From Bacillota bacterium (lineage in GTDB: Bacteria; Bacillota; Limnochordia; Darwinibacteriales; Darwinibacteriaceae), in NCBI GenBank assembly GCA_012521335.1, contig JAAYMM010000002.1, positions 53,030-117,029 of the forward strand: a stretch of DNA of 64,000 nucleotides, written 5' to 3'. Made by a program: the position numbers and the translations under genes. Shown here in pieces: positions 48,388-64,000 of the stretch. Position 1 is the first letter of the stretch, and every line of letters begins with the position of its first letter. The notes below the pieces were generated by a model, which was given only the letters and a program-made list of their open reading frames with translations, did not search any database and was not told the origin of the DNA.

Positions 48388-48400
48388 GGGAGGTGGCTTG

Positions 48401-51400
48401 GTGACTGCCTTTTACATAGAACCGGAGAACAAGTTATTCTTGGCTTCCTTAAGCTCCCACCCCCTGGTACAGGAACTGGAGATTGAACGCATCGGGGTGG
48501 ACCCCCAAACGAGGACGTGGGTCTTCGTGCTCCAAGGGCCGCCCCGAGGTGAACAGGCGCTCTGGAATGAGTTAACTCAAGCAGTGAAGAACCTGCATCC
48601 GGAGGTGGCCGAAGTTCGCTTTGAATGGACAAGCACTGCGGCATCCGGTCAGTCCGAGCCAGAGAGCGAGTCGGAACAGGCCTATCTGGAAAACGCCATC
48701 AGGCAGGTGAATGGGATGCCGATCAACTACAGTTCGGCACCCACCAATGGGAACGGCCGCACCAACGGCAATGGCCGTTCTAACGGGCGAAGCCGAAGTC
48801 TCCTGAGAGACTCTATTCCCGGAGATCCCGTGCCCATTGCCCAGCTCCAGGAAGGTGAAGACAACGTCCTGATTGCCGGCGAAGTTGTGGCCTTTGAATC
48901 TCGCGTTACCCGCACGGGCAAGATCCTGGTCATGTTCGATGTCTACGATGGAACTGACACCCTCGGCTGCAAGGTGTTCCTGGACGAAGCACAGGATCTG
49001 GGCATCAAAAAGGGACAGTGGGTCAAGGTCCGGGGTAATCTGCAATTCCAGCCCTTTGACAACGAACTGAGCCTCATGGTGCAGGGACTAGCTCCCATGG
49101 AGGCGCCGCACTGCCTGGAGGATACTGCGGAACAGAAGCGGGTAGAGCTGCACCTGCACACGAAAATGAGTGGGCTCGATGGTACGGTGGATGTGGAGCT
49201 GCTCATGAAGTTGGCCGCCTCCCTGGGTCACGATGCGGTGGCCATCACCGACCACGGCGTGGTGCAGGCTTTCCCTGAGGCCCATCGGGCAGCCAAAAAG
49301 CACGGCATCAAGGTGCTTTACGGAGTTGAGGGCTACCTGGTGGATGATCCCGAGAGCAAAACGCGGCCCTACCATATTGTGCTGCTGGCTAAGAACCAAG
49401 TGGGGCTCAAAAACCTGTACCGTTTGGTTTCCTATGCCCATCTTCGCCATTTTTACCGGGTACCCCGCATACCCCGCTCTTTGCTGCAGCAGTACCGCGA
49501 GGGCCTGATTGTGGGATCTGCCTGCGAGGCCGGCGAGGTTTTCCAGGCCGTGCTCCACCAGCGCCCTAACGTTGTAGAAGTGGCCAGCTTCTACGACTAC
49601 TTAGAGATCCAACCGCTGGCCAATAACGAGTTCCTCATCGGCACCAGCAACGTGCGATCCAGAGATGACCTCGTTCGCATTAACAAGCAGATTGTGGCGC
49701 TGGGTGAGCGTTTGGATAAGCCTGTTGTAGCCACGGGCGACGTGCATTTCCTCCGGCCCGAGGATGCGTTTGTGCGTACCATCCTCCTCGCGGGTAAGGG
49801 TATGGGTGATGTGGAGCACCCTGCACCCCTGTATTACCGCACCACTGCCGAGATGCTCCAGGAGTTTGCCTACCTCAGCGCAGAGAAGGCCTATGAGGTT
49901 GTGGTGAAAAACCCCCGCTGCATCGCGGCTGAAATCGAACAGTTGAGCCCGGTTCCTTCGGGTTTCTATCCGCCGCACCTCCCCGAGGCAGACAAGGAAC
50001 TGGAGAGAATGACCTATGCCAAGGCCCGGGAGATCTACGGAGATCCCCTGCCGGACATTGTCCAGGCGCGTTTGGAGCGGGAATTGAAAGCCATCATCGA
50101 CAACGGCTACGCGTCCTTGTACATTATTGCTCATAAACTGGTGAAAAAGTCCCTGGACGATGGCTACCTGGTCGGGTCCAGGGGATCGGTGGGATCTTCT
50201 TTGGTGGCCACCATGTGTGCGATTACAGAGGTGAACCCTCTGCCGCCGCACTATGTGTGCCCTAACTGCCACTGGACAGAATTCTTCACCGCCGGGGAGG
50301 TGGGCTCAGGGGTAGATCTGCCTGACCGCAGCTGCCCGAAGTGCGGCACAGTAGTCCGCAAGCTGGGCTTTGACATTCCCTTTGAAGTGTTTATGGGCTT
50401 CCACGGCGATAAGGTGCCAGATATCGATCTTAACTTCAGCGGAGAATACCAGGCTCAGATCCACAGCTACACCGAGGAACTGTTCGGCACCGATTACGTG
50501 TTCCGAGCCGGCACCATCGGTACCTTGGCAGAAAAGACGGCCTATGGCTTTATCATGAAGTACTTGGAACAGACCAACGAGACCAGGCGCAGCGCGGAAA
50601 TCAACCGTCTGGTTTCCAAACTGGCGGGCGTGCGCCGCACCACCGGCCAGCACCCTGGGGGCATGGTGGTGATTCCTAAAGGGAAGGAAGTATTCGACTT
50701 CACTCCCATCCAATATCCCGCCAACGATCCCAGCAGCGGGACGATTACCACCCATTTCGAGTACCATGCCCTGGATGACTGCCTGGTGAAGCTGGACATC
50801 TTAGGACATGATGATCCCACCATGCTGCGCATGCTGGAAGATCTCACAGGGGTCAACGTGGCTGATATCCCCCTCAATGATCCCCAGACCATGGCCATTT
50901 TTTCGTCTACGGAGAGCCTGGGAGTGACCCCGGAGCAGATCGGCACGCCAGTAGGCACTTTAGGTGTACCCGAGTTTGGCACGCGCTTCGTCCGCCAGAT
51001 GCTGGAGGACACCTTACCTAAGACTTTCAGCGACCTGGTGCGCATCAGCGGCTTGTCCCACGGAACCAACGTATGGACCAGCAACGCGGAAGAGCTGATC
51101 AAGGCTGGGATCACGGATATCAGCGGAGTTATTGCCACCAGAGATGACATCATGATCTACCTCATGCTCCGGGGCGTGGAGGCTCGGGATGCTTTCCGAA
51201 TCATGGAACAGGTGCGCAAGGGAAAGGGGCTCACAGAAGCGGATGAGGCCCTGCTCAAGCAGTTTGATGTCCCCCAGTGGTACATCGATTCCTGCAACAA
51301 GATCAGCTACATGTTCCCTAAAGCTCATGCCGTGGCCTATGTGATGATGGCCTTCCGCATCGCCTACTTCAAGGTCCACTATCCCCTGGCCTTCTATGCA

Positions 51401-51838
51401 GCCTTGTTCTCGCTGCAGGCGGGTGATTTCGATGCCCAACTGGTGAAGGGTGGAGAGCAGGCTGTCCGGGCAGAGTTGGCCAGAATCACCAACAAGGCCT
51501 ACGAGGCCACTCCCAAGGAGCGGAGCCTGGTAACCTTGTTGGAGATCATCCTGGAAGCCATGGTGCGTGGGGTGCGTTTCCTGCCCGTCGATCTCTACAA
51601 GTCGGCGGCACAGGTGTTTAGGATCGAGGGCGAGGCCCTGCGTCCACCGTTTGCTTCCCTGCAGGGTGTTGGGGCCAGCGCGGCCAACAGCATTGTGCAG
51701 GCCCGGGAAGAAGGGGAGTTCATCTCCGTTGAGGATCTACGGCAGAGGGCCGGTGTCACCAAGGCGGTGATCGAAGCTCTGCGCCTGCACGGGTGTCTCG
51801 AGGGCCTGCCGGAAACGAATCAATTGACACTTTTCTAG
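48401..51838 (+). CDS. polC: DNA polymerase III PolC-type alpha subunit, apparently lacking the 3'-5' exonuclease domain
   Basis: OB domain, PHP domain ('VELHLHTKMS...DHGVVQAFPEA...KKHGIKVLYGVEGYLVDD'), PolC zinc-finger module ('YVCPNCHW...CPKCG'), palm/fingers, C-terminal tandem HhH; only 1146 aa; PHP goes straight from 'LVDD' to 'RPYHIVLLAKN' with no exonuclease insert. Confidence 0.9.
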   Translation: MTAFYIEPENKLFLASLSSHPLVQELEIERIGVDPQTRTWVFVLQGPPRGEQALWNELTQAVKNLHPEVAEVRFEWTSTAASGQSEPESESEQAYLENAIRQVNGMPINYSSAPTNGNGRTNGNGRSNGRSRSLLRDSIPGDPVPIAQLQEGEDNVLIAGEVVAFESRVTRTGKILVMFDVYDGTDTLGCKVFLDEAQDLGIKKGQWVKVRGNLQFQPFDNELSLMVQGLAPMEAPHCLEDTAEQKRVELHLHTKMSGLDGTVDVELLMKLAASLGHDAVAITDHGVVQAFPEAHRAAKKHGIKVLYGVEGYLVDDPESKTRPYHIVLLAKNQVGLKNLYRLVSYAHLRHFYRVPRIPRSLLQQYREGLIVGSACEAGEVFQAVLHQRPNVVEVASFYDYLEIQPLANNEFLIGTSNVRSRDDLVRINKQIVALGERLDKPVVATGDVHFLRPEDAFVRTILLAGKGMGDVEHPAPLYYRTTAEMLQEFAYLSAEKAYEVVVKNPRCIAAEIEQLSPVPSGFYPPHLPEADKELERMTYAKAREIYGDPLPDIVQARLERELKAIIDNGYASLYIIAHKLVKKSLDDGYLVGSRGSVGSSLVATMCAITEVNPLPPHYVCPNCHWTEFFTAGEVGSGVDLPDRSCPKCGTVVRKLGFDIPFEVFMGFHGDKVPDIDLNFSGEYQAQIHSYTEELFGTDYVFRAGTIGTLAEKTAYGFIMKYLEQTNETRRSAEINRLVSKLAGVRRTTGQHPGGMVVIPKGKEVFDFTPIQYPANDPSSGTITTHFEYHALDDCLVKLDILGHDDPTMLRMLEDLTGVNVADIPLNDPQTMAIFSSTESLGVTPEQIGTPVGTLGVPEFGTRFVRQMLEDTLPKTFSDLVRISGLSHGTNVWTSNAEELIKAGITDISGVIATRDDIMIYLMLRGVEARDAFRIMEQVRKGKGLTEADEALLKQFDVPQWYIDSCNKISYMFPKAHAVAYVMMAFRIAYFKVHYPLAFYAALFSLQAGDFDAQLVKGGEQAVRAELARITNKAYEATPKERSLVTLLEIILEAMVRGVRFLPVDLYKSAAQVFRIEGEALRPPFASLQGVGASAANSIVQAREEGEFISVEDLRQRAGVTKAVIEALRLHGCLEGLPETNQLTLF

Positions 51839-52442: not shown

Positions 52443-53909
52443 ATGAATTTGGAATTAATTGGTGCATTGACTGAACTGGAAAAGGAGCGGGGCATCTCCA
52501 AGGAGCTGCTGCTGGATGCCATTGAAACCGCGATCGTCTCAGCCTACAAAAAGAACTATGGAGCCAGCTCATCGGCCAGCGTACGAGTGGAGTTGAACCA
52601 GCACACTGGTGAGATTCACGTCTATTCTCGCCGCGTCGTGGTTGATGAGGTGGAGGACGAGACCCTGGAGATTTCCCTGGAGGAAGCGCGTGACCTGGAT
52701 CCCAACTACGAATTGGGAGATGTGGTGGAGCGGGAAGTAACCCCTGCAGAATTCGGCCGCATCGCCGCTCAGACTGCGAAACAGGTGGTTATCCAGAAGA
52801 TTAGGGAAGCGGAACGCTCCATCGTGTACGACGTATACTCCAACCGGGAGGGTGATGTGGTTACTGGCACCGTACAGCGGGCCGATCAGCGCCAGGTCTT
52901 GGTTGACTTAGGCGACGTGGAGGCAGTGCTGCCGGCCAGCGAACAGATCCCCGGCGAAGTGTACAGTCCCCACGCGAAAATGCGTTTCTACATCAACGAA
53001 GTACGCCAGACCAGTAAAGGTCCCCAGATTTTCCTTTCCAGAACTCATCCCGGCCTTTTGCGGGCCCTTTTTGAACTGGAAGTGCCGGAGATCCAGAGTG
53101 GAGAAGTGGAGATCAAAGCGGTGGCCAGGGAAGCCGGCAACCGCTCCAAGATCGCGGTGTACAGCCGCGACCCCAACGTCGATCCCGTGGGTGCCTGCGT
53201 GGGTGCGCGGGGCAGCCGAGTTCAGTCGGTAGTGGCCGAACTGGGCAACGAGCGCATTGATGTGGTGCAGTGGGAAAAGGATGTGGGCGAGTTTGTGAAG
53301 AACGCGCTCAGCCCTGCCAAGGTGCTCTTTGTGGTCACGGACGAAGAGGAAAAGGTAGCCCATACCGTGGTTCCCGATGATCAGCTGTCTCTGGCCATTG
53401 GCAAAGAGGGGCAAAATGCCCGCCTGGCGGCGCGCCTCACCGGCTGGAGAATTGATATCAAGAGCGAAACGCAAGCTGCCGAGCTGGGACTGGAACCCCA
53501 GCCGGTAGTGGAGTTCGAAGACGAGCTAGAACTAGACCTGGACGAACTGGTGGAAGAACCAGTTGTGGAGCCGGAAGAAGAGGTTGAACTGCAAGTGGCT
53601 GTAGAAGCTGAGGCGGAAGTCCAGGATGAGGAAGCGACAGAGCAGACTGTCCGCGAGGAGGCGCAGCCAGAACCATCTGAACAAGAGCCCAAAGCTCCCG
53701 CCATCAGCGTTGAAGACCTGGCCAGCCTGACCAACGTGACCAAGCGTAAGAGCTGGCAGGAACGCTTCGGCAGCATCGAAGTGGCCCCTGCGCCCGCCGC
53801 TCCGCAAGAAAAGCAGGAAACAGGCAAACCGAAAAAGAAGAAAGAAAGAGTCATCACTGACTTGTCGCAGCTGGAATCCATCACTTTCAAGTTTGACGAA
53901 GAGAAGTAG
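52443..53909 (+). CDS. nusA: Transcription termination/antitermination factor NusA, with long acidic C-terminal extension
   Basis: NusA N-terminal domain, S1 and two KH domains; ~120 aa E/P-rich tail. Confidence 0.9.
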   Translation: MNLELIGALTELEKERGISKELLLDAIETAIVSAYKKNYGASSSASVRVELNQHTGEIHVYSRRVVVDEVEDETLEISLEEARDLDPNYELGDVVEREVTPAEFGRIAAQTAKQVVIQKIREAERSIVYDVYSNREGDVVTGTVQRADQRQVLVDLGDVEAVLPASEQIPGEVYSPHAKMRFYINEVRQTSKGPQIFLSRTHPGLLRALFELEVPEIQSGEVEIKAVAREAGNRSKIAVYSRDPNVDPVGACVGARGSRVQSVVAELGNERIDVVQWEKDVGEFVKNALSPAKVLFVVTDEEEKVAHTVVPDDQLSLAIGKEGQNARLAARLTGWRIDIKSETQAAELGLEPQPVVEFEDELELDLDELVEEPVVEPEEEVELQVAVEAEAEVQDEEATEQTVREEAQPEPSEQEPKAPAISVEDLASLTNVTKRKSWQERFGSIEVAPAPAAPQEKQETGKPKKKKERVITDLSQLESITFKFDEEK

Positions 53910-53919
53910 GTGGTAGAGG

Positions 53920-54198
53920 ATGCGCAAAAAGCACGTTCCCATGCGTACCTGCGTGGGCTGCCGCACCTCCGCGCCCAAGCGGGAACTGATCCGCGTTGTG
54001 CGCAGTCCCGCTGGGGAAGTGAGTTTAGATTTGGTTGGTAAAAGCCCGGGACGGGGAGTGTACATTCATCCCACTGAAGGCTGTTTGGAAAGCGCCGTCA
54101 AGGGACGCCAAATCCAAAGAGCACTGGAAACCCCCATCTCGGATGAGCTCCTGGAAGACTTGAAGCGGGTGCTCCATGAAAAGCAAGATCAGCAGTAA
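53920..54198 (+). CDS. ylxR: YlxR/DUF448 RNA-binding protein
   Basis: 'VPMRTCVGCR' motif; conserved nusA-ylxR-L7Ae-infB arrangement. Confidence 0.85.
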   Translation: MRKKHVPMRTCVGCRTSAPKRELIRVVRSPAGEVSLDLVGKSPGRGVYIHPTEGCLESAVKGRQIQRALETPISDELLEDLKRVLHEKQDQQ

Positions 54199-54535
54199 GG
54201 ACAAGTTCTACAGCTATCTGGGCTTGGCCACTCGGGCTGGTAAAGTGGTCTCGGGGGAAGATGCGGTGGAAAGCGCGGTACGGCGGGGCAAGGTGTTTTT
54301 CCTCATCCTGGCCCAAGATGCCTCCGCGAACACCCTCCGCAAGTTCAGCTCACTGGCTCGCCATCACCACCTGCGCGCAGCCGTCGCTGGCAGCAAAGAC
54401 CTGTTAGGTCAGGCCATGGGCAAGGCGCCGAGGGCAGTGGTGGGGATTACCGACCGCGATTTTGCCCAGGTGATTCGGGAGAGCGTGAGAGAGTCAGTGC
54501 AGGAGAATGATAGGAGTGATGCCGATGACGAATAA
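54176..54535 (+). CDS. ylxQ: L7Ae-family ribosomal-like protein (YlxQ)
   Basis: 'LGLATRAGKVVSGEDAVESAVRRGKVFFLILAQDAS' L7Ae/L30e fold signature. Confidence 0.8.
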   Translation: MKSKISSKDKFYSYLGLATRAGKVVSGEDAVESAVRRGKVFFLILAQDASANTLRKFSSLARHHHLRAAVAGSKDLLGQAMGKAPRAVVGITDRDFAQVIRESVRESVQENDRSDADDE

Positions 54536-56600
54536 AATCAGAATCTACGAGCTGGCAAAGGAACTTGATTTGAAGAGCAAGTTCGTGATTGAGTTCCTCA
54601 ATGACCTAGGAGCGGATGTGTCCAATCACATGAGTTCCATCGACGAAGACATAGCCAATATGCTCAGGGAGCATTTTGCCCCAGAAGAGGAAGCACCGGT
54701 GCCAGAAGACGATGAGCCGAAAGTGCTCAAAAAGAAGCGGAGGTCCTTTAAGAAGGAAGAAGAGGAGCGGGACGCTGGGCCGAAACTGCGCGGCAAGAAA
54801 AAACGCGGCCCCAGAAAGCCTGGAGCTCCAGAACAGCCTTCCGCGGAAAAGAAAGCTAAGCGGATTACGCTAGGTGAACGCGTAGCCGTGAATGAGCTGG
54901 TTCAGAAGATCGGCGTGTCTGGTGCAGAAGTGGTCAAACAGCTCATGAAAATCGGCGTCATGGCTTCTCTTGCGCAAAGCGTAGACTATGAGATCGCGGC
55001 GATTGTGGCTTCTTATTTCGGAGTGGAGACTGAACCCGAGCGCGACCTGGCAGAGGAAATCTTCGCACCCGCGGAGCCAGACCCGGCCAAGTTAGTCCCC
55101 AGACCCCCTGTGGTCACCATCATGGGACACGTTGACCATGGCAAGACAACGCTCTTGGACTTCATCCGCAAAACCAAGGTGACGGCCACTGAAGCGGGCG
55201 GGATCACCCAGCACATTGGGGCTTACCAGATCGAGTACAATGGCAAACGCATCACCTTCCTCGATACGCCGGGCCACGAGGCGTTTACCGCCATCAGAGC
55301 CCGCGGCGCTAGGGTAACTGATATTGCTGTCTTGGTAGTAGCGGCCAATGACGGAGTAATGCCCCAGACGGTGGAGGCGATCAACCATGCCAAGGCCGCC
55401 GGTGTTCCCATCATTGTCGCCATTAACAAGATGGATCTGGCCGCCGCCAACCCCGATCGCGTCAAGCAGGAATTGACAGAGCACGGCTTGGTCGTGGAAG
55501 AGTGGGGCGGCGACACCATTGCCGTACCCATTTCCGCTCTGCGCGGCGAAGGCATTGAGGATCTTTTGGAGATGATCCTTTTGGTGGCTGAAATGGAAGA
55601 TGTGAAGGCGGATCCAGACTGCCCGGCCCGGGGTACTGTCATCGATGCCAAACTGGACCGGGGCAGAGGGCCCGTCGCCACCGTGCTCATCTCCCAAGGT
55701 ACGCTCCGCATCGGCGATGCCTTTGTGGTGGGGAACTACTGCGGACGCGTACGTGCGCTGATCAACGACCGAGGTGAACAGATTAAAGAAGCAGCACCTT
55801 CCATGCCTGTAGAAGTCTTGGGTATTACCGATGTACCTCAAGCGGGCGACTCCTTTGTCGTTGTGCAGGATGAGCAGACCGCCCGTCAGGTGGCCTCGAT
55901 CCAGCAGGAGAAGCAGCGCGAACGGGATCTGAGCAGGACCAGTAAAGTGACCCTCGACGATCTGTACCGCCGCATCCAGGAAGGTGCCGTGAAAGAACTG
56001 AACCTGGTGATCAAGGCTGACGTGCAGGGTTCGGCGGAAGCGGTACGCGCTTCTTTGGAAAAATTGTCCACGGACGAAGTGCGCGTCAATGTGATCCACC
56101 AGGGAGTAGGCGCCATTTCTGAGTCCGATGTACTGCTGGCTACGGCCTCCGATGCGGTGATTATCGGCTTTAACGTACGACCTGACTCTAACGCCCGCAA
56201 AGCTGCGGAGCGTGATGGCATCGATATCCGCGTTTACCGCGTAATCTACGACCTCCTGGACGATGTGAAAGCAGCCATGGCCGGCCTGTTGGAGCCCGAG
56301 TTCAAGGAAGAGTTCCTGGGGCGGGCCGAAGTACGCAAGACCTTTAAGGTTCCAGGCGGAGTTGTGGCAGGCTGCTATGTCCAGGAAGGCAAGATCTCCC
56401 GTTCGGCAGAAGTGCGTGTGCTGCGGGACAACGTGATTGTCCACGAAGGGAAGATTTCATCCTTGAAGCGTTTCAAGGATGACGTGCGTGAAGTGAGCCA
56501 CGGCTATGAATGCGGTATTGGTCTTGATCGCTTCAATGACATTAAAGAGGGGGACGTAATCGAAGCCTTCGTCATGGTTAAGGTGGAACGAACCCTGTAG
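54525..56600 (+). CDS. infB: Translation initiation factor IF-2
   Basis: '[14 protein letters not shown]' N-terminus; G-domain '[14 protein letters not shown]', 'DTPGHEAF', 'NKMD'. Confidence 0.95.
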
Positions 56601-56604
56601 GACG

Positions 56605-56979
56605 GTGACGGAGATGTCAGAAAGACTGGCTAGATTAGCCCAAGAAATCAAGCGTGAAGTGAGCAGCATTTTGGCCACTGAAGTGAAAGATCCCCGCCTA
56701 GGCATGATCAGCATCACCGATGTGGAGGTGAGCAGGGATCTCGCTCTGGCGAAAATCTACTTCAGCCTGTTGGGAGATGAAGAAGAAAGGATGCGCACCC
56801 TGGAAGGCCTGAACCGGGCCAAAGGGTTTATCCGCTCCGAGCTGGCCAAGCGCATCCGGGTCAGGCATGTTCCCGAAATTGCCTTTGTGTTTGACCCGTC
56901 CCTGGAGCAAGGTGCCAGGATGGATGCCCTGCTCAAGTCGCTGCAGATATCAAAGGAAGATGAAGTGAGTAATGAATAG
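56605..56979 (+). CDS. rbfA: Ribosome-binding factor A
   Basis: 124 aa; 'RLARLAQEIKREVSSIL...DPRLGMISITDVEVSRDLALAKIY' signature. Confidence 0.9.
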   Translation: MTEMSERLARLAQEIKREVSSILATEVKDPRLGMISITDVEVSRDLALAKIYFSLLGDEEERMRTLEGLNRAKGFIRSELAKRIRVRHVPEIAFVFDPSLEQGARMDALLKSLQISKEDEVSNE

Positions 56980-57955
56980 CCTGGCAGAGATTGTCCATTT
57001 CCTCCACAACCGGGACAGCTTCATAATTGTGGGCCACGAGGGACCAGATCCCGACAGTCTCGGCTCCATGCTGGGCCTGTACTTTGGCCTCAGCAAACTG
57101 GGCAAGCGCTGCCGCCTGGTCAGTGCCGATCCCTTACCGCCGTATCTCACCTGGCCCGGCCTGGAGAACATTGAGTTTTGCGGGGAGGAGTTCACCCCGG
57201 GGGACAGCTGTGTGCTGGTGGTGGACTGCGAGCCGCAGCGCACAGGCACTATCGCCCAGGGGGTGCTCCAAGCCAAAGAGCTTGTGAACATCGACCACCA
57301 CCAGCGTGGGCGCGGAGTGGGTGACCTGGTGTACGTTGATCCCTCGGAGGCGGCCACCAGTGTCATCATCTACCGTCTGCTCAAAGAGCTGCGGGTTCCC
57401 TTCGATGTGAACTTGGCCACTGTTTTGTACGGCGGTATTGTGGGTGACACGGGAGGATTCCGCCATGCCAACACCAACAGCGAAGTGCTGCGCATCGCCG
57501 GCGAGCTGCTTGACTACGGCGTGGAACCGGCCCGCATTGCCCGGGAGATCTTTTCCATGCAACCGTTAGGCTTCATGCAGCTTTTAGGCTATGCCTTGAG
57601 CCATCTGCACACGGCCCTAGAGGGCCGCTTAGTCTGGATGGCGGTGAGCAGTGAAGAGTTTGGGCGGTTTGATGTGGATCCAGAGATGACCGACCATCTG
57701 GTCAGTTACGCGCGCATGTTGGATAGTGCAGAAATCGCCATGGTCTTCAGAGAGGTGAGGCCTGGCTTGACCAGGCTGGGCCTGCGCTCTAACGCGGTGG
57801 ATGTGGCCAAGCTGGCCCGGCACTTTGGCGGAGGAGGCCATAAGCTGGCATCTGGCGCCACCCTGCACGGCAGCTTCAGCGAGATCGTGAGCCAGGTAAC
57901 CGGCACAGCAGAGCGTTACTTGGCAACGGGTGAGATCGATGAACGGGATAATTAA
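56972..57955 (+). CDS. nrnA: DHH/DHHA1 phosphoesterase NrnA (nanoRNase/pAp phosphatase)
   Basis: 'IVGHEGPDPDSLGS' DHH motif and C-terminal 'GGGH' DHHA1. Confidence 0.85.
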   Translation: MNSLAEIVHFLHNRDSFIIVGHEGPDPDSLGSMLGLYFGLSKLGKRCRLVSADPLPPYLTWPGLENIEFCGEEFTPGDSCVLVVDCEPQRTGTIAQGVLQAKELVNIDHHQRGRGVGDLVYVDPSEAATSVIIYRLLKELRVPFDVNLATVLYGGIVGDTGGFRHANTNSEVLRIAGELLDYGVEPARIAREIFSMQPLGFMQLLGYALSHLHTALEGRLVWMAVSSEEFGRFDVDPEMTDHLVSYARMLDSAEIAMVFREVRPGLTRLGLRSNAVDVAKLARHFGGGGHKLASGATLHGSFSEIVSQVTGTAERYLATGEIDERDN

Positions 57956-58865
57956 CGTATTAAAGCCTCCGGGCATGAGCTCCCATCAAGTAGTGGCCCA
58001 TCTCCGCAGACTGCTCAACACGAAACGCATTGGCCACGGCGGCACTCTGGATCCCGGGGCCAGCGGAGTGCTGCCCATCCTCGTGGGCAGCGCCACTAGA
58101 CTGTCCGACTACCTGCTGGATTACGACAAGACGTATGTGGCAGAGCTCACGTTGGGCATTGCCACCGATACCCAAGACGCCAGCGGTGAGACAACCGGCC
58201 TGAACACCGATTTCCAGATCACGCCTCTGCAGTTGGCCGATGTGTTGGCTTCTTTCCAGGGGTCCATCTGGCAGACACCGCCCATGGCGTCCGCAGTGCG
58301 GGTGGGGGGCAAGCGATTGTACGAACTACAGCGCCAGGGGATTTCTGTGGAGCGCCCGCCTAGACAGGTGCAAGTCCATTCCATCAACATCATGGCCATT
58401 TGGCACGAAGGGGACTCCTTGGGCTTTGGCACGCGGGTGCTGCTTCGGATTGCCTGCTCGAAGGGTACATATATCCGCACGCTTGGCCATGACATCGGGG
58501 AAAAGCTGGGCGTCGGAGCGCACGTATCCTTTCTTACTAGAGTGAGCAGCGGGCCCTTTCACAGCGAGCAGGCCCATACACTGGAAGAGATCGCGCAGCT
58601 GGCATCCGAAGATAACCTGGCCTTTCTCCTGCCGATGCAGGCCGCTCTGCCCCATTGGGTCCAGGTAAAAGTCCATCCCCTGGTGGAAGAGCGGATCAAA
58701 AACGGGAACTACATCCTGCCGGAACATCTCCTGGATGTGCCCAGTCAGTTGACAGTGGGCGATGATGTGGTCCTGTTGAGCCTGGAGGGAGAACTCCTGG
58801 CCTTGGCTGAGATCAGGATGGCAGAGCGTTTGATCTGCCAACCATTCCGAGTATTTGTGAAATAG
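57939..58865 (+). CDS. truB: tRNA pseudouridine(55) synthase
   Basis: 'GIINVLKPPGMSSHQVV...IGHGGTLDPGASGVL' catalytic Asp motif. Confidence 0.9.
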   Translation: MNGIINVLKPPGMSSHQVVAHLRRLLNTKRIGHGGTLDPGASGVLPILVGSATRLSDYLLDYDKTYVAELTLGIATDTQDASGETTGLNTDFQITPLQLADVLASFQGSIWQTPPMASAVRVGGKRLYELQRQGISVERPPRQVQVHSINIMAIWHEGDSLGFGTRVLLRIACSKGTYIRTLGHDIGEKLGVGAHVSFLTRVSSGPFHSEQAHTLEEIAQLASEDNLAFLLPMQAALPHWVQVKVHPLVEERIKNGNYILPEHLLDVPSQLTVGDDVVLLSLEGELLALAEIRMAERLICQPFRVFVK

Positions 58866-58874
58866 GTGCAGCAC

Positions 58875-59822
58875 ATGGAACTTAAATGGATTAGTGGAAC
58901 GAATACTCCAGCCCGCAGTGTGGCCCTGGGGACTCTTGACGGCGTTCACCTCGGACACCAAAAGCTGTTAGAGACGGCAGTAGCGTATAGACCGCCCGTG
59001 GGCAGCAGTGCCGTCTTTACCTTTGATTATCCCCCTGAACAGTTTTTTCGCGGCCAATTCAGGCTGATCAGCTCCTTTGAACAGAAAGTGGAGCTGATTC
59101 AAAACTGCGGCATCGACGAGGTGGCCTGGCTCCCCTTCGGGCTGGAAATCGCTTCTTTGGAAGCCGAAGAGTTTGTTCAGCACATTCTGCTCGATCAGCT
59201 CAAAGCGGTGCATGTGGTCTGCGGTTTCAACTACCGCTTTGGCAAAGGCCGTGCCGGGGATGTGGCCTTCCTTGCCGAACAGGGACGCCGTCACGGTTTT
59301 GAGGTTACAGTAGTGCCCTCGGTGCACAGCTCCAACGGCGAGTTGATCAGCAGTACGGCCATCCGCAACCTGCTGGCAGCAGGGAACGTAGAACAGGCCG
59401 CCGATTACTTGGGCCGTTTCCCGGCGTATCGCGGCACCGTGGTGCGCGGAGAGGGAAGAGGGCGTCAGCTGGGGTTTCCCACCGCTAACCTGGAGGTTAA
59501 CCCCCTGCTTGTCCTGCCCGGTGAAGGAGTGTATTTGACCTGGTGCGTATTGTCCCACAACCTGGGTGTCCCTGCGGTAACATCCATAGGGCGCAATCCC
59601 ACTTTTGCCGGCCAAGTGCAGACGGTAGAAGTCTACTTATTGGACTTTGAGGCTGACTTGTACGGCCAGGTGCTGGAGGTCCAGTTTTTGCAGCGGCTGA
59701 GGGATATTATCCGCTATCCTTCAGCAGAAGCGCTGCAGGATCAGATCCGCTCAGATGTGCGCCAAGCCCGCCAACTATTGGATCAATATCGTTTACAAGA
59801 TGCCCGGGTTGTGCTAAAATAG
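58875..59822 (+). CDS. ribF: Bifunctional riboflavin kinase / FMN adenylyltransferase
   Basis: 'ALGTLDGVHLGHQKLL' FAD-synthetase nucleotidyltransferase motif and C-terminal riboflavin kinase 'GEGRGRQLGFPTANL'. Confidence 0.9.
   Translation: MELKWISGTNTPARSVALGTLDGVHLGHQKLLETAVAYRPPVGSSAVFTFDYPPEQFFRGQFRLISSFEQKVELIQNCGIDEVAWLPFGLEIASLEAEEFVQHILLDQLKAVHVVCGFNYRFGKGRAGDVAFLAEQGRRHGFEVTVVPSVHSSNGELISSTAIRNLLAAGNVEQAADYLGRFPAYRGTVVRGEGRGRQLGFPTANLEVNPLLVLPGEGVYLTWCVLSHNLGVPAVTSIGRNPTFAGQVQTVEVYLLDFEADLYGQVLEVQFLQRLRDIIRYPSAEALQDQIRSDVRQARQLLDQYRLQDARVVLK
59792..59820 (+). promoter_or_regulatory. Sigma-A promoter with extended -10 (TTTACA-N17-TGcTAAAAT) for rpsO, inside the ribF 3' end
   Basis: Hexamers and spacer read directly; leader contains two small hairpins (TGTGCC-tta-GGCACA at 59826-59840; GCAAAG-ccc-CTTTGC at 59842-59855). 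Confidence 0.5.
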
Positions 59823-59921
59823 CATTGTGCCTTAGGCACACGCAAAGCCCTTTGCTAGGAATGGCGTACCTCCGGCGCTGTTCTTGGGAAGCGGTGTGAA
59901 ACAGATTTTGGAGGTGATGTT

Positions 59922-60188
59922 GTGATTAGTCAAGAGGTAAAAAACGAGATTATCAAGAAGTTTGCCCGTCACGAAGGTGATACGGGTTCTCCGGAAGTCC
60001 AGATAGCCATCTTGACCCACCGGATTCAAGAACTTACTGAGCATCTCAAGGTTCACAAGAATGATCATCATTCTCGGAGAGGCCTCTATAAGATGATCGG
60101 TCAGCGTCGCGGTCTTTTGAACTATCTCATGAAAAAAGACATCGAGCGGTACCGCAGTCTTATTGAAGAGCTAGGTTTGCGTCGGTAA
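59922..60188 (+). CDS. rpsO: 30S ribosomal protein S15
   Basis: 88 aa; '[37 protein letters not shown]' S15 signature; GGAGGTG RBS. Confidence 0.95.
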
Positions 60189-60193
60189 AAGAT

Positions 60194-60222
60194 GAGCGGG
60201 CAACTGTTCCCGCTCTTTTTTG
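60194..60222 (+). terminator. Rho-independent terminator after rpsO (partial readthrough into pnp likely)
   Basis: GAGCGGG-caactgtt-CCCGCTC followed by TTTTTT. Confidence 0.75.
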
Positions 60223-60298
60223 GATCGCGCCCGCTGCAGAGTTTGCGCAGAAGGCCATACTAATTGTAACCGAGAACATGCAAATTGGAGGTTAGAAC

Positions 60299-62410
60299 AT
60301 GCAGACCGAGTTTCGAAGGGAACTAGCCGGAAGGCCCTTGATTCTGGAATTCGGCGGCGTGGCCAAACAGGCCAACGGATCCGTTCTGGTCCGTTACGGA
60401 GAGACTGTTGTTCTGGTCACCGCCACCATGAGCAAGGAACCCAGAACGGGCATCGACTTTTTCCCGCTTCTGGTCGATTACGAAGAACGCCAGTATGCTG
60501 TAGGCAGAATTCCTGGCGGTTGGGGAAGAAGAGAAGGCCGGCCCAGCGCCGAAGCTATTCTCTCTGCCCGCATGATCGACCGTCCCCTGCGGCCTTTGTT
60601 TCCTGAAGGATTCCGCAATGACGTCCAGATCGTGGCCACGGTCATGTCCGTGGACAAGAGCAACTCGCCGACCATCGCTGCCTTGATCGGCGCCAGCGCC
60701 GCACTCACCGTATCGGATATTCCGTTCGGAGGGCCGGTGGGTGGAGTCAAGGTAGGTTTGGTTAAAGGCCAGCTCGTCCTCAATCCCACCCTGGCTGAGC
60801 AGGCTGAATCGGATCTGGAGATTACGATCGCGGGAACCAAAGATGCGGTCACCATGGTTGAGGCAGGTGCCAACGAGGTTTCCGAAGAGACGATCTTGGA
60901 GGCTATCGCTTTTGGGCATGCAGCGATCAAGGATCTCTGCCTGCTGCAGGAGGAGATTCGCGCCCAGATCGGCAAGGAAAAAGTGCAAGTCCCCGTGTTT
61001 CAGCCGGAATTGGAGCTGGATCGCTGGGTCCGGGAGCACGTCTACGAAGAACTGGTCCAGGCCCTCAAAGCCAGCGAGAAGCTGGAACGGGAGCGGCTGT
61101 TGGATGAAGTGCGCGGTGGAGCACATGAAGCCTATCAGGAAGAGTTCGGCGAAGAGCTGTACGAAGAGCAGAGCAAGTTCATCGACGCTGTGTTCGACGC
61201 CGTACTCAAGGAAGAAGTACGCCGCGCCATTACCAAAGACAAGGTCCGGCCCGATGGCCGCAAACCTGATGAAATCCGTCCCGTGAGCTGTCAAGTGGGT
61301 CTGCTGCCTAGAGCTCATGGAAGCGGGCTGTTCACCAGGGGACAGACCCAGGTGTTGACCTCTGTCACCTTGGGGCTGAAATCGGACGAACAGCTTCTGG
61401 ACAGCCTTACTGAAGAAGAGAGCAAACGCTACATTCACCACTACAACTTCCCACCGTACAGCGTAGGCGAAGTGCGGCCCATTCGCGGTCCTGGACGCCG
61501 GGAGATCGGGCACGGTGCCTTGGCTGAACGGGCTCTGCTGCCGGTGATCCCCACGGAAGAAGAGTTCCCCTACACGCTCCGCCTGGTTTCGGAAGTTCTG
61601 GAGTCCAACGGTTCCTCTTCCATGGCCAGTGTCTGCGGCAGCACTCTGGCGCTTATGGATGCAGGCGTGCCCATCAAGAGCCCTGTGGCCGGTATTGCCA
61701 TGGGTTTGGTGATGCGGGATGGCGAATACACTATCCTCACAGACATTCAAGGGCTAGAAGATGCCCTGGGTGATATGGACTTTAAGGTCGCCGGCACAGA
61801 AAAAGGCATCACTGCTCTGCAGATGGATATCAAAATCGGCGGGGTAACCCCGGAGATCATGGCAGAAGCTCTGGACCAAGCCCGCAAGGGTAGGCTGTTT
61901 ATCTTGGGCAAGATGCGCGACTGCATCGAAAAACCACGCCCCGAGCTGTCCCGTTACGCACCGCGTATTATCACCATGGAGATTCCCGTTGACAAGATTC
62001 GCGACGTAATCGGACCTGGCGGCAAGATTATCCGGGACATCATCGCCAAGACGGGTGTGGAGATTGACATCGAAGATGACGGGCGCGTCTACATCGCTTC
62101 AACTGACGAAGAAGGCGGCAAGAAGGCACAGCAGCTCATCGAGCGCTACGTGAAAGATGTGGAAGTGGGCGAGACCTATCTGGGAGTGGTGAAACGCATC
62201 ATGAATTTCGGTGCTTTCGTCGAAATCCTCCCTGGGAAGGAAGGTTTGGTACACATTTCACAATTGGAGAACCGCCGGGTGAACAAAGTTGAAGATGTGG
62301 TCAAGGTAGGAGATGAAGTTCTGGTCAAGGTCTTGGAGATTGACCGCCAGGGAAGAATTAACCTCTCCCGCAAAGAAGCCCTCGCTGAGCAGAAGGAATT
62401 CGAGAGGTAA
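60299..62410 (+). CDS. pnp: Polyribonucleotide nucleotidyltransferase (PNPase)
   Basis: 703 aa; two RNase PH domains, KH and C-terminal S1 domain ('[19 protein letters not shown]'). Confidence 0.95.
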
Positions 62411-62439
62411 TATCGAAACAAGTTAATAGTAACGTAATA

Positions 62440-62470
62440 AAGCAGGTATACAGAATAACCTGCTTTTTCA
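62440..62470 (+). terminator. Rho-independent terminator after pnp
   Basis: AGCAGGT-atacagaata-ACCTGCT followed by TTTTT. Confidence 0.75.
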
Positions 62471-62501
62471 TTTTGTTAACACGGAGAAAAGGGGTATGTG
62501 C

Positions 62502-63485
62502 ATGGCGGTTCTGGCTGTCTACCCGCAGGGGAAAACCCTGCACTTTGGGGTGGGAGCGGTGGATGCTCCCGAGGCTGCCACATTCACTCTTGCATCCTGC
62601 ACAGATGCAGCTATTGTCGCAGAGCAGCTGTTGGCCTGGCTGGAGGCAGCCGGATTTTCCGGGGATCAGCTCGAGTTTATTGTCACCAGCGGCCACCTTA
62701 CTGAAGGCCCCAGCGGCATCTACCGCTGGACCCAGTCTGCGCAGTCGGCCGAGCCCTGGGCAGGCGAGCTGTGTACTGTGCTCTCAGAGTATCTCTCCTG
62801 TCCCGTTTACCTCATCGACCCTGCCAGCAGCGCAGAATGTCATCGGCACGCCCTGGTCACCGGTACGCCGGCCATCCAGCGTCCTTACTTTGCCGACTAC
62901 TTTATCTTTAAGTATCTAGCCCGCGAGGAAGCACTCAGGCGTGGTCTGAAGCAAAGGGAAGGGCGCTTCATTGTTGCCCATCTCGATACTGTAAACCAAC
63001 TGGGCGCGGTGGTGGGCACCAGGGTGGTGGACTGCCTGACCAGTGCCGATGAGGGGCCCTTTGCCCTTTACCACAGCGGAGGACTGCCCTTCGATGAAAT
63101 CTTAAGGATCTGCGACTCTGCTCCTCAGCGGGAACAGGCGCTGCAGGCTCTGACAGAAAACGGGGGCCTAAGGGGCTATTTGGGCCTGGAGAACATAGCC
63201 GACTTCTACAGTCAGCGGGACGAGCAGTCCGAGCTAATCAGGCAGGCTCTCGTGTACCAGATTGCCAAGGAAATAGGTGCCTTAGCCGCAGCTCTCCAAG
63301 GCCAGGTAGATGCCATTATCTGCGCGGGCGAGTTGGCCAGGTTCGAGCCGCTGATAGCCGAGCTCACTGCACGAGTTGGTTTTGTTGCTCCTCTGGTAGC
63401 AGTCCCCGGACAGCAGGGAGTCTCTGCTCTGTTGGCGGGGGCAAGGCGGGTCTGGGAAAAGGAACCCATCATGAACTTAAGCTGA
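62502..63485 (+). CDS. Butyrate kinase-like (ASKHA superfamily) protein with degenerate catalytic motifs
   Basis: Collinear with butyrate kinase (e.g. 'IVAHL...GAVVGTRVVD', 'LVYQIAKEIGALAAALQGQVDAIICAG'), but PHOSPHATE-1 'NPGSTSTK' is replaced by 'YPQGKTLH', 'HMGGG' by 'HLDTV', 'TGGIA' by 'AGELA'. Confidence 0.6.
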   Translation: MAVLAVYPQGKTLHFGVGAVDAPEAATFTLASCTDAAIVAEQLLAWLEAAGFSGDQLEFIVTSGHLTEGPSGIYRWTQSAQSAEPWAGELCTVLSEYLSCPVYLIDPASSAECHRHALVTGTPAIQRPYFADYFIFKYLAREEALRRGLKQREGRFIVAHLDTVNQLGAVVGTRVVDCLTSADEGPFALYHSGGLPFDEILRICDSAPQREQALQALTENGGLRGYLGLENIADFYSQRDEQSELIRQALVYQIAKEIGALAAALQGQVDAIICAGELARFEPLIAELTARVGFVAPLVAVPGQQGVSALLAGARRVWEKEPIMNLS

Positions 63486-63498
63486 AGGAGTGTGCGCT

Positions 63499-64000
63499 AT
63501 GGGATTTGCTCAGCTGAGAAAACGCCTACAGGGGCGCGAGCCCAAGACTCTGGTCTTGGCCTGGGGTCTGGACGCTGGCGTCCTGGAAGCATGCAGGCAG
63601 GCTCTAGATCATGGTTTCATTAAGGAGGTAGTAGTCACGGGGCCGCCTGAACAGGTGCAGAAAACTGCGGAGCAGGTCCATATGGATCTGGCTGGCTTTT
63701 CCTTCCATCCAGCAGCAACGCCCGTGGAGGGAGCAGCGGAAGCAGTACGCCTGATCAGAGAGGGACGAGGCCAAGTGCTCATGAAGGGGCACTTGAACAC
63801 CAGTGCGATTTTGCGAGCGGTAGTGAACAAAGAAACGGGCATCCGCAAGGAAAGCCTGCTCAGTCATATCACCATCGTCGAACTGCCGTCGGAACGCTTG
63901 GCCCTGCTCACAGATGCGGCCATGAACATCAAACCGGATCTGCCCCAAAAGGCCCAGATTCTCGATAATGCCATCAAGTTCGCCTGGTCCATCGGACTGG
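63499..64000 (+). CDS. Phosphate butyryltransferase/phosphotransacetylase-like protein (Ptb family), N-terminal fragment; continues past the window
   Basis: 'KTLVLAWGLDAGVLEA...VLMKGHLNTSAIL...ITIVELP...LTDAAMNIKP' Pta/Ptb family pattern; GAAGGAG RBS; no stop within the window. Confidence 0.7.
   Translation, partial: MGFAQLRKRLQGREPKTLVLAWGLDAGVLEACRQALDHGFIKEVVVTGPPEQVQKTAEQVHMDLAGFSFHPAATPVEGAAEAVRLIREGRGQVLMKGHLNTSAILRAVVNKETGIRKESLLSHITIVELPSERLALLTDAAMNIKPDLPQKAQILDNAIKFAWSIGL

Follow-up and report, generated by a model that had tools for sequence, protein, structure and literature searches.

The question raised by this locus is what a homologue of butyrate kinase (Buk) does when the residues expected to make it a kinase have been replaced. 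The gene concerned, here called bukL, lies directly behind pnp and in front of ptb near the end of a 64,000-nucleotide stretch (the window) of contig JAAYMM010000002.1, from a Bacillota bacterium of the family Darwinibacteriaceae. An earlier sequence-only reading of this stretch had described the product as collinear with Buk but degenerate in three motifs, and had suggested a non-catalytic or diverged paralog, perhaps a partner of the Ptb-like enzyme or a kinase with a different substrate. Our data indicate that BukL is almost certainly a diverged, non-kinase paralog, and we consider it on balance probable that it is a non-catalytic partner pseudoenzyme which is selectively maintained.

Homology to butyrate kinase and predicted fold

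The gene and those of its features that are discussed first are the following:

62483..62494, + strand: ribosome-binding site (RBS) of bukL, GGAGAAAAGGGG, read from the sequence; an RBS of GAGAGGAGT type stands at the same place in orthologous loci
62502..63485, + strand: bukL, degenerate butyrate-kinase paralog of 327 aa, from the list of open reading frames (ORFs), homology, alignment and model
62520..62543, + strand: PHOSPHATE-1 equivalent, YPQGKTLH (canonical NPGSTSTK), from alignment with 48 canonical Buks
62895..62897, + strand: Asp132 at the position of the invariant catalytic-position His (Buk H155), from alignment
62976..62999, + strand: PHOSPHATE-2 equivalent, AHLDTVNQ (canonical AH[LM]GGGI[ST]), from phmmer against 1SAZ and alignment
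63321..63341, + strand: ADENOSINE-motif equivalent, CAGELAR (canonical LTGGLAY), from phmmer against 1SAZ and alignment
63405..63419, + strand: PGQQG where canonical Buks have PGENE, without either invariant Glu, from alignment

With an upstream in-frame ATG included, the ORF runs from 62496 to 63485 (+) and encodes 329 aa. The true start is likely the second ATG at 62502, since at nearly all orthologous loci the first ATG directly adjoins the conserved RBS, the sequence from RBS to start being GAGAGGAGT-ATGTGCATGGC. The ORF list and this conserved RBS position agree with the 327-aa frame from 62502 that had been read earlier.

BukL matched the NCBIfam model NF002834 (E=1.9e-49, residues 42-323) and TIGR02707 (E=2.8e-42), and was collinear with Thermotoga maritima Buk2 (1SAZ/1X9J; phmmer E=9e-29). 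It scored below all curated cut-offs, with 145 against 289.1 for TIGR02707, 168.7 against 222 for NF002834 and 19.6 against 22 for PF00871. Other members of the BukL family reached 120-185 bits on the butyrate-kinase NCBIfam models. An AlphaFold2 (AF2) model of the BukL of the window, built with 33 family sequences, was confident (predicted local distance difference test, pLDDT, 88.1; predicted template modelling score, pTM, 0.88). Its best Foldseek matches were the Buk structures 9a71_A, 1x9j and 1saz, with template modelling (TM) scores of 0.82-0.83 and E down to 5e-26, whereas acetate and propionate kinase structures ranked lower (TM ~0.7). A short-form member of the family (P0023, 292 aa) also gave a confident AF2 fold with the ASKHA core intact (pLDDT 86.1, pTM 0.84). 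BukL is thus predicted to retain the two-domain ASKHA acetokinase fold, and the collinearity with butyrate kinase noticed before was confirmed by profile, by structure-derived sequence and by a TM score of 0.83.

Loss of the nucleotide-binding and catalytic motifs

We compared 33 members of the BukL family with 48 canonical Buks in a MAFFT L-INS-i alignment of 81 sequences. The motif register was checked in three ways, by phmmer against 1SAZ, by MAFFT with 21 sequences and by the L-INS-i alignment, and all three independent alignments gave the same one, which excludes an error of register. The degenerate motifs YPQGKTLH, AHLDTVNQ and CAGELAR of the sequence-only reading therefore stand.

In PHOSPHATE-1, N9, G11, S12, T13, S14, T15 and K16 were each present in 47 of the 48 canonical Buks, the 48th being gapped, and were replaced across the BukL family. 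The H155 position, which we take to be the equivalent of His180 in acetate kinase, was His in 48/48 canonical Buks and Asp in 30/33 BukL sequences. In PHOSPHATE-2 the three glycines gave way to D/E/E(V) and the Ser or Thr to Gln (30/33), with a family consensus of HLDEExQ. T303 of the ADENOSINE motif became Ala, Ser or Gly, and G305 became Glu or Asp in 28/33. At the PGENE position the family reads PGNQG, with E332 changed to N/Q/S/D (to Asn in 26/33) and E334 to G/A/T/V/I. Glu214-Arg215 of PER are Tyr-His in the BukL of the window and x-Gln/His in the family; the Arg of GRGG (R75) is Ser in the window and Ser or Asn across the family. The HASNLG segment is variable and was deleted in 16/33. 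Of the residues shared by 47-48 of the 48 canonical Buks, N9, G11-K16, R75, H155, G185-G187, R215, T303, G305, E332 and E334 have thus given way to others in the family of 33 BukL sequences, and every nucleotide-binding and catalytic motif is replaced in 33/33.

Catalytic roles for the His of FHALN, the Arg of PER and GRGG and the Glu of PGExE are inferred from work on acetate kinase. Because the glycine-rich phosphate and adenosine loops are gone and Asp and Glu stand in them, ATP binding by BukL is very unlikely, judging from what is known of the ASKHA superfamily. Could BukL nevertheless be an active acyl kinase with unconventional loops? The Buk fold is kept, as are a few cleft residues, namely the Asp of IDP (D129, 30/33), the His of AHL (H183, 27/33) and Arg150 (33/33). 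Against this, the glycines of PHOSPHATE-1, PHOSPHATE-2 and ADENOSINE, the Lys, the His and Arg of the catalytic positions and both Glu of PGExE are all missing, acidic residues occupy the phosphate-binding loops, the equivalog score is half of the cut-off, and a fully canonical Buk is encoded in the same operon. We therefore disfavour an active kinase and regard it as very improbable. BukL combines a homologous fold with the absence of the residues required for catalysis, which is what makes a pseudoenzyme; that it is a diverged, non-kinase paralog is almost certain, its inactivity being deduced from the alignments.

The substituted residues are conserved in their turn, a sign of new constraints rather than of free decay. 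The family alignment contains 19 invariant columns and ~37 columns conserved at >=90%. The replacements include Asp (30/33), Gln (30/33), Glu/Asp (28/33), Asn (26/33) and the Cys of R-x-C (30/33). Such a pattern resembles new constraint also in the sense of a new function, in which a remodelled cleft would bind a ligand of its own, for example a cation or a basic compound, and act as a sensor or a different enzyme. Candidate acidic ligand residues are Asp132, Asp162, an acidic residue at 163 in most members, and Glu277, beside the retained Asp106 and His160; that some cleft residues (D129, H183 and R150) are retained would fit. However, no known catalytic motif is recognisable. Half of the cleft belongs to the N-domain, which evolves faster than any other part (34% identity) and in about half of the members carries a deletion of ~25-35 residues, something hard to square with a precise new active site. 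Furthermore, the BukL of the window does not have the family Cys (RPY). We consider such a gain of function unlikely. The idea that BukL uses a different substrate is unlikely too, since about half of the family no longer has any acyl-pocket insert (GGLL...HASNLG).

Two peculiarities of the window sequence may be recorded here. It has Tyr (RPYFAD, 62880-62897) at the near-invariant Cys of R-x-C-x-A-D (30/33), and it reads ECHR where the family commonly has E-C-x-P (62835-62846).

Distribution of the family and selection on bukL

A word-indexed search found 37 clusters of the BukL family at 90% identity, with lengths of 290-343 aa and 35-64% identity to the query. When 1.84 billion cluster representatives were searched exhaustively with a profile, only ~17 of them scored >=275 bits; after a gap, canonical Buks came next at <=207 bits. 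A scan of GTDB species representatives placed BukL in ~17 species, all of them uncultured Bacillota known from metagenome-assembled genomes (MAGs), largely from anaerobic digesters. 'Candidatus Darwinibacter acetoxidans' is among the carriers; its genus belongs to the order DTU010/MBA03 (PMC12663870). Members of the family are labelled 'butyrate kinase' by JGI and 'hypothetical protein' by NCBI.

The gene was intact and syntenic in 22/22 surveyed loci and in the two most divergent ones (L091 and L092; L numbers denote loci and contigs, P numbers proteins), and the order rpsO-pnp-bukL-ptb-buk-fdx-vorBAC-DUF3866 was held across those 24 loci as far as the contigs reach. The identity of pnp among bukL loci ranged down to 76%. 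Over 19 loci, mean pairwise amino acid identity was 46.8% for BukL, 70.3% for Ptb, 71.3% for Buk, 81.9% for VorB and 82.0% for PNPase. The ratio of nonsynonymous to synonymous substitutions (dN/dS; Nei-Gojobori, NG86) was 0.11-0.20 for bukL against 0.03-0.10 for pnp, ptb, buk and vorB, values that are rough since for most pairs dS was close to saturation or beyond it. The pair with the least saturation, L014/L016 (dS ~0.8), gave 0.198 for bukL and 0.043-0.057 for its neighbours. The constraint on bukL is relaxed 2-4-fold, yet purifying selection is clear.

A functionless, decaying duplicate or a gene-calling artefact would account for the faster evolution of bukL (about twice that of its neighbours in identity, 2-4 times in dN/dS), for the loss of all catalytic motifs and for the deletions in the N-domain. 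It does not account for the reading frame, RBS and start that are conserved in 22 loci plus L091 and L092, for a dN/dS of 0.11-0.20, for the 19 invariant columns or for the confident fold; a neutral remnant would not have come through such divergence without disruption or deletion. We strongly disfavour this explanation and give it hardly any weight. A pseudogene or frameshift was rejected on the same ground, as the ORF is intact at all orthologous loci and dN/dS is well under 1. The earlier suggestion of a non-catalytic paralog is thus supported by the replacement of the motifs in 33/33 members, by purifying selection and by the confident Buk fold.

Gene context

The neighbours of bukL in the window are:

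60299..62410, + strand: pnp, polynucleotide phosphorylase, 703 aa, upstream neighbour (ORF; Pfam RNase_PH/PNPase/KH/S1 on the identical gene in L004-L007)
63484..63490, + strand: RBS of ptb, GAAGGAG, overlapping the bukL stop codon (sequence)
63499..64000, + strand: ptb, phosphate butyryltransferase, first 167 codons, the rest lying beyond the window (TIGR02706 E=1e-38, PF01515)

At every locus surveyed bukL is preceded by pnp. The gap between bukL and ptb is 13 nt, and this short gap together with an RBS placed over the stop codon indicates probable co-transcription and coupling of the two genes. As the window ends inside ptb, we followed the operon elsewhere. The exact BukL protein of the window is present on many public contigs, and four of these (L004-L007) match window 52496-64000 at 99.75-99.91% identity along 11.5 kb and therefore continue the same species past the window end. 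Their gene order is nusA-ylxR-L7Ae-infB-rbfA-nrnA-truB-ribF-rpsO-pnp, then bukL, ptb (300 aa), buk (360 aa), ferredoxin (74 aa), vorB, a thiamine pyrophosphate (TPP) subunit (vorA), a gamma subunit (vorC) and DUF3866. The full-length Ptb of 300 aa reached 330 bits with NF004472 and 316 bits with NF006045 against a cut-off of 282, and VorB was over its NCBIfam cut-off (562 vs 399).

The Buk downstream of ptb in these contigs is canonical. It scored 518 bits with TIGR02707 and E=4e-125 with 1SAZ, and all its motifs are intact (INPGSTSTK, HASNLG, FHALNQK, AHLGGGIS, PERVGS, LTGGLAY, PGENE). A canonical Buk lies two genes 3' of bukL at every locus long enough to show it. The search for a canonical buk or ack that had been proposed earlier thus gave two answers: a six-frame search of the 64-kb window with a canonical-Buk hidden Markov model (HMM) found bukL alone and no second buk or ack, and L004-L007 carry the canonical buk two genes downstream. 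The order had also been described as buk-like then ptb, the reverse of the usual ptb-buk. This is literally so in the window but misleads, since the window ends inside ptb: the real order is bukL-ptb-buk-vor. An inverted ptb-buk pair was discarded, as a canonical buk follows ptb and the buk-ptb-buk arrangement is common.

Given the established roles of VOR, Ptb and Buk, the operon would lead from a branched-chain 2-oxoacid to the acyl-CoA, the acyl-phosphate and finally the fatty acid and ATP in a ferredoxin-dependent manner, or in the reverse direction. The DUF3866 gene (~352 aa, no NCBIfam match; L004:15633-16691) begins ~25 nt after vorC. It follows vorC in nearly every locus that is long enough (also L001, L002, L008-L025 and L091), so that it looks like the operon's last gene.

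Origin from an upstream butyrate kinase

Clusters of the type buk-ptb-buk-fdx-vorBAC with two intact Buks were common among the canonical-Buk loci that we recovered. Carriers are Clostridium polynesiense, C. amylolyticum, Clostridium sp. KNHs214 and Alkaliphilus transvaalensis, and MAGs of Peptococcaceae, Caldisericia and Coprothermobacterota. In a neighbour-joining tree the upstream and the downstream Buks formed separate clades; the downstream Buks of Darwinibacter type fell into the 'downstream' clade, and the BukL family grouped with the upstream copies. A recent tandem duplication of the operon's own buk could be rejected, for BukL is only 32% identical to the downstream Buk of the same operon and the downstream Buks sit in a separate clade.

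The slot behind pnp is also occupied by proteins in other states of preservation. P0038 (L093) has all motifs intact and scored 373 bits with TIGR02707; it is followed by ptb and a second Buk beginning MLLIINPGSTSTK. All motifs are likewise intact in the slot protein of L028, a Limnochordia MAG. P0076 (L094) is without PHOSPHATE-1, PHOSPHATE-2, ADENOSINE and PGExE but keeps HPANLG, the His and the Glu-Arg; it scored 272 bits, just below the equivalog cut-off, and branches with the BukL family. Against the BukL family HMM these three slot relatives scored best, with 303 bits for P0076 and 251 and 247 bits for the two intact ones, other Buks reaching 150-210. Finally, about half of the BukL family is without an insert of ~25-35 residues between strand 4 and helix 2 of the N-domain, the part that carries GGLL...HASNLG in real Buks. 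By tree and slot, BukL descends from the upstream Buk of an ancestral buk-ptb-buk-vor cluster. With intact P0038 and L028, half-degenerate P0076, dead BukL and short BukL at hand, the trajectory is therefore one from an active upstream Buk to a partly dead, a dead, and a dead and trimmed protein.

Some Buks with NPGATSTK or HLGTGVS that we had first flagged as degenerate turned out to be a canonical variant. In a different setting, P0080 (L096:5714-6826) is a second, apparently independent, partly degenerate Buk, upstream of ptb and downstream of spoIVB-spo0A. It keeps DPGSESTK, HPSNLG and ERAGG, and has Asp for His, SLGSSSS at PHOSPHATE-2, TGRLAR at ADENOSINE and PDNCE. As it is over the NCBIfam butyrate-kinase cut-offs (402 and 445 bits), it would be annotated automatically as an active enzyme.

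Proposed role

We think it somewhat better than an even chance that BukL is a selectively maintained, non-catalytic partner. That its partner is specifically Buk, of which it would be a non-catalytic subunit, we propose tentatively. The upstream Buk of the ancestral cluster became BukL in the lineage to which 'Ca. Darwinibacter' belongs, with catalysis left to the downstream Buk. BukL has lost the phosphate and adenosine loops, the catalytic His, Arg and Glu and often the acyl-pocket insert, and has kept the ASKHA core and, preferentially, the C-terminal domain, by which acetokinases dimerise. It would then form a heterodimer or hetero-oligomer with the live Buk, and this binding would stabilise or tune the ATP-yielding Buk step.

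What favours Buk as the partner is the better conservation of the C-domain together with a shared helix. Mean pairwise identity was 52.1% for the C-domain of BukL versus 34.4% for its N-domain, compared with 73.4% versus 68.5% in Buk. Acetokinases reportedly dimerise via their C-terminal domains, as in the acetate-kinase structure of Methanosarcina thermophila. In our phmmer alignment, D227 of the acetate kinase of Salmonella typhimurium (StAckA) corresponds to the Asp of VVD in Buk, which is kept in >=90% of the mixed Buk/BukL alignment, and R309/K312/Y313 correspond to Q/K/E of the helix YQIAKEIG, whose Y, Q, K and E are invariant in Buk and BukL. In AckA, R178, D227, M230, R309 and Y313 line a conserved pocket at the dimer interface, and K312 contacts bound citrate (PMC3475010). 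BukL is co-encoded with an active paralog, as would be expected of a partner of the prozyme or TsaB type.

A single polypeptide also bears on the question. P0077 (L097:6001-7794) has 597 aa and consists of an intact Buk, a ~40-aa acidic linker and an N-truncated, degenerate Buk with the motifs AYLGKGIS, PEMSG, LTGRLAG and SGDLQQ. This fusion may be taken as a weak Rosetta-stone hint, pairing a dead Buk body with a live Buk. Behind it come a 223-aa ORF without a Pfam match on record and then fdx-vorBAC; a degenerate Ptb was considered for this ORF and dropped, as it has no similarity to Ptb.

Alternatively, BukL could serve Ptb or Ptb-VOR as a non-catalytic partner or scaffold that holds acyl-phosphate or acyl-CoA or regulates the phosphotransacylase. 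It lies directly 5' of ptb at every locus and is apparently translationally coupled to it, with the 13-nt gap and the RBS over the stop. Moreover, single polypeptides of Buk and Ptb occur in both orders (P0131, Buk-Ptb; P0144, Ptb-Buk) and suggest close proximity of the two activities. These fusions may, however, be gene-calling artefacts, each being one cluster representative. Furthermore, the parts that could bind acyl-phosphate, namely the phosphate loops, the Arg and His and the acyl-pocket insert, are precisely those that BukL has lost, whereas the part it kept is the domain of Buk-Buk dimerisation. We regard a partnership with Ptb as rather unlikely.

Several points weigh against Buk as the partner or against the partner role as such. 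The P0077 fusion was seen on a single contig. Clusters with only an upstream or only a downstream Buk exist, so that Buk does not generally need a paralogous partner. The conserved C-domain could equally serve homodimerisation or binding of Ptb or VOR. The tree is a neighbour-joining sketch in which the BukL family is long-branched, and the saturation of dS noted above applies to the argument from selection.

Further Buk fusions were observed, one with an N-terminal ACT domain (P0089) and one with a branched-chain amino-acid transporter (P0139); like those with Ptb, they may be genuine or gene-calling run-ons. If real, such fusions tie Buk physically both to Ptb and to the sensing of amino acids. 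In L094 (3737-5032) the downstream Buk was called as a protein of 431 aa with acetokinase and Fer4 domains, an apparent Buk-ferredoxin fusion.

The pnp-bukL spacer and the rest of the window

One further feature lies between pnp and bukL:

62440..62468, + strand: terminator-like hairpin after pnp, AAGCAGGT, 10-nt loop, ACCTGCTT, T-tract (sequence)

The hairpin stands ~25 nt ahead of the bukL RBS. In 18 orthologous loci the stem is the same and the loop differs from one to another; the hairpin is also found in L028 and L094, and L092 has the compensatory stem AACAGGT/ACCTGTT. A simple terminator scan missed it because the loop is longer than 8 nt. The spacer as a whole (62424-62495) is conserved in nucleotide sequence across species, being the same in L001, L008-L027 and L091, and is composed of TTAATA, ~18 nt, the invariant stem AAGCAGGT/ACCTGCTT, the T-tract, TTAACA and the RBS. 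The loop always begins TAnAnn, often TATAAT or TATAAA. The hairpin looks like the terminator of pnp. A sigma-A-type promoter with TTAATA as -35 element and its -10 element in the loop may overlap it; otherwise the operon would depend on read-through. A regulatory RNA in the spacer was also considered and rejected, as there was no Rfam match at E<=1 beyond noise; at gathering score, no Rfam family was detected anywhere in the 64 kb.

In the remainder of the window (1-62410) all large ORFs are on the + strand and follow a Bacillus-like order: dacA-like, topA, hslU, a flagellar operon (fliF, fliK, flgE, flhA), dxr, proS, polC-like, and nusA through pnp. The DNA polymerase III alpha at the PolC position (48398-51838, between proS and nusA) has 1146 aa with PHP, pol3 alpha, finger and HHH domains, and no exonuclease domain was matched in it at E<=1e-8. 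A typical PolC of Bacillota has ~1430 aa.

Relation to known systems and implications

BukL resembles Buk (EC 2.7.2.7; T. maritima Buk2; PF00871) in its two-domain fold, in its association with ptb and a 2-oxoacid:ferredoxin oxidoreductase and in the motifs IDP, EGPF, GGLxGYLG and YQIAKEIGA. It differs in being 30-70 residues shorter, in the frequent deletion of the acyl-pocket insert, in evolving ~2x faster and in falling below the cut-offs. With the upstream Buks of buk-ptb-buk-fdx-vorBAC clusters it shares the place as first gene before ptb, and in L028 and L093 this place is directly after pnp as well; these two are the nearest upstream Buks (L028 and P0038/L093, 247-251 bits on the BukL family HMM). 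The upstream Buks, however, keep NPGSTSTK, HxGGGIS, TGGxA and PGExE and pass TIGR02707 (P0038 with 373 bits), whereas BukL reaches 120-157 bits. T. maritima presumably has a buk1-ptb-buk2 cluster (TM1754-1756), which is no part of the evidence here.

Two precedents exist for a role of this kind. Among bacterial ASKHA proteins, TsaB (YeaZ) is an inactive paralog that has lost nucleotide binding and catalysis and, as a heterodimer, is the obligate partner of the active TsaD. It belongs to the Kae1/TsaD branch, serves tRNA t6A formation and is universal in bacteria, whereas BukL is an acetokinase homologue of one uncultured clade with a putative partner. The prozymes of trypanosomatids are dead paralogs that activate AdoMetDC and deoxyhypusine synthase through hetero-oligomers (PMC5201418, PMC3663545). 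Their folds are unrelated, they are eukaryotic and the activation was shown by experiment. Full-text searches of the literature turned up no account of a butyrate kinase that is degenerate or a pseudoenzyme, and the Darwinibacteriales paper makes no mention of butyrate or branched-chain metabolism (PMC12663870). Judged by the literature that could be searched, the acetate/propionate/butyrate-kinase family has had no pseudoenzyme so far, and BukL would be its first.

A bolder version of the Buk-partner proposal, which we put forward as speculative and would call possible but doubtful, is that BukL is the first 'prozyme' of the acetokinase family. It would be an obligate dead subunit pairing with Buk through the C-terminal domains, its acid-lined cleft would be an allosteric or pseudo-substrate site, and it would gate the step by which the fermentation of branched-chain amino acids yields ATP in the Darwinibacteriales/MBA03-type clade. 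If this is true, the living intermediates document a stepwise change from an enzyme to a regulatory subunit.

The BukL clade is uncultured and narrow. In annotation, the protein should be named butyrate-kinase-like, non-catalytic, and not butyrate kinase, for counting BukL as Buk would inflate the butyrate and branched-chain fatty-acid capacity inferred for an abundant lineage of biogas reactors. With its intermediates in the same genomic slot, this family offers a tractable case of the passage from a redundant enzyme to a non-catalytic subunit.

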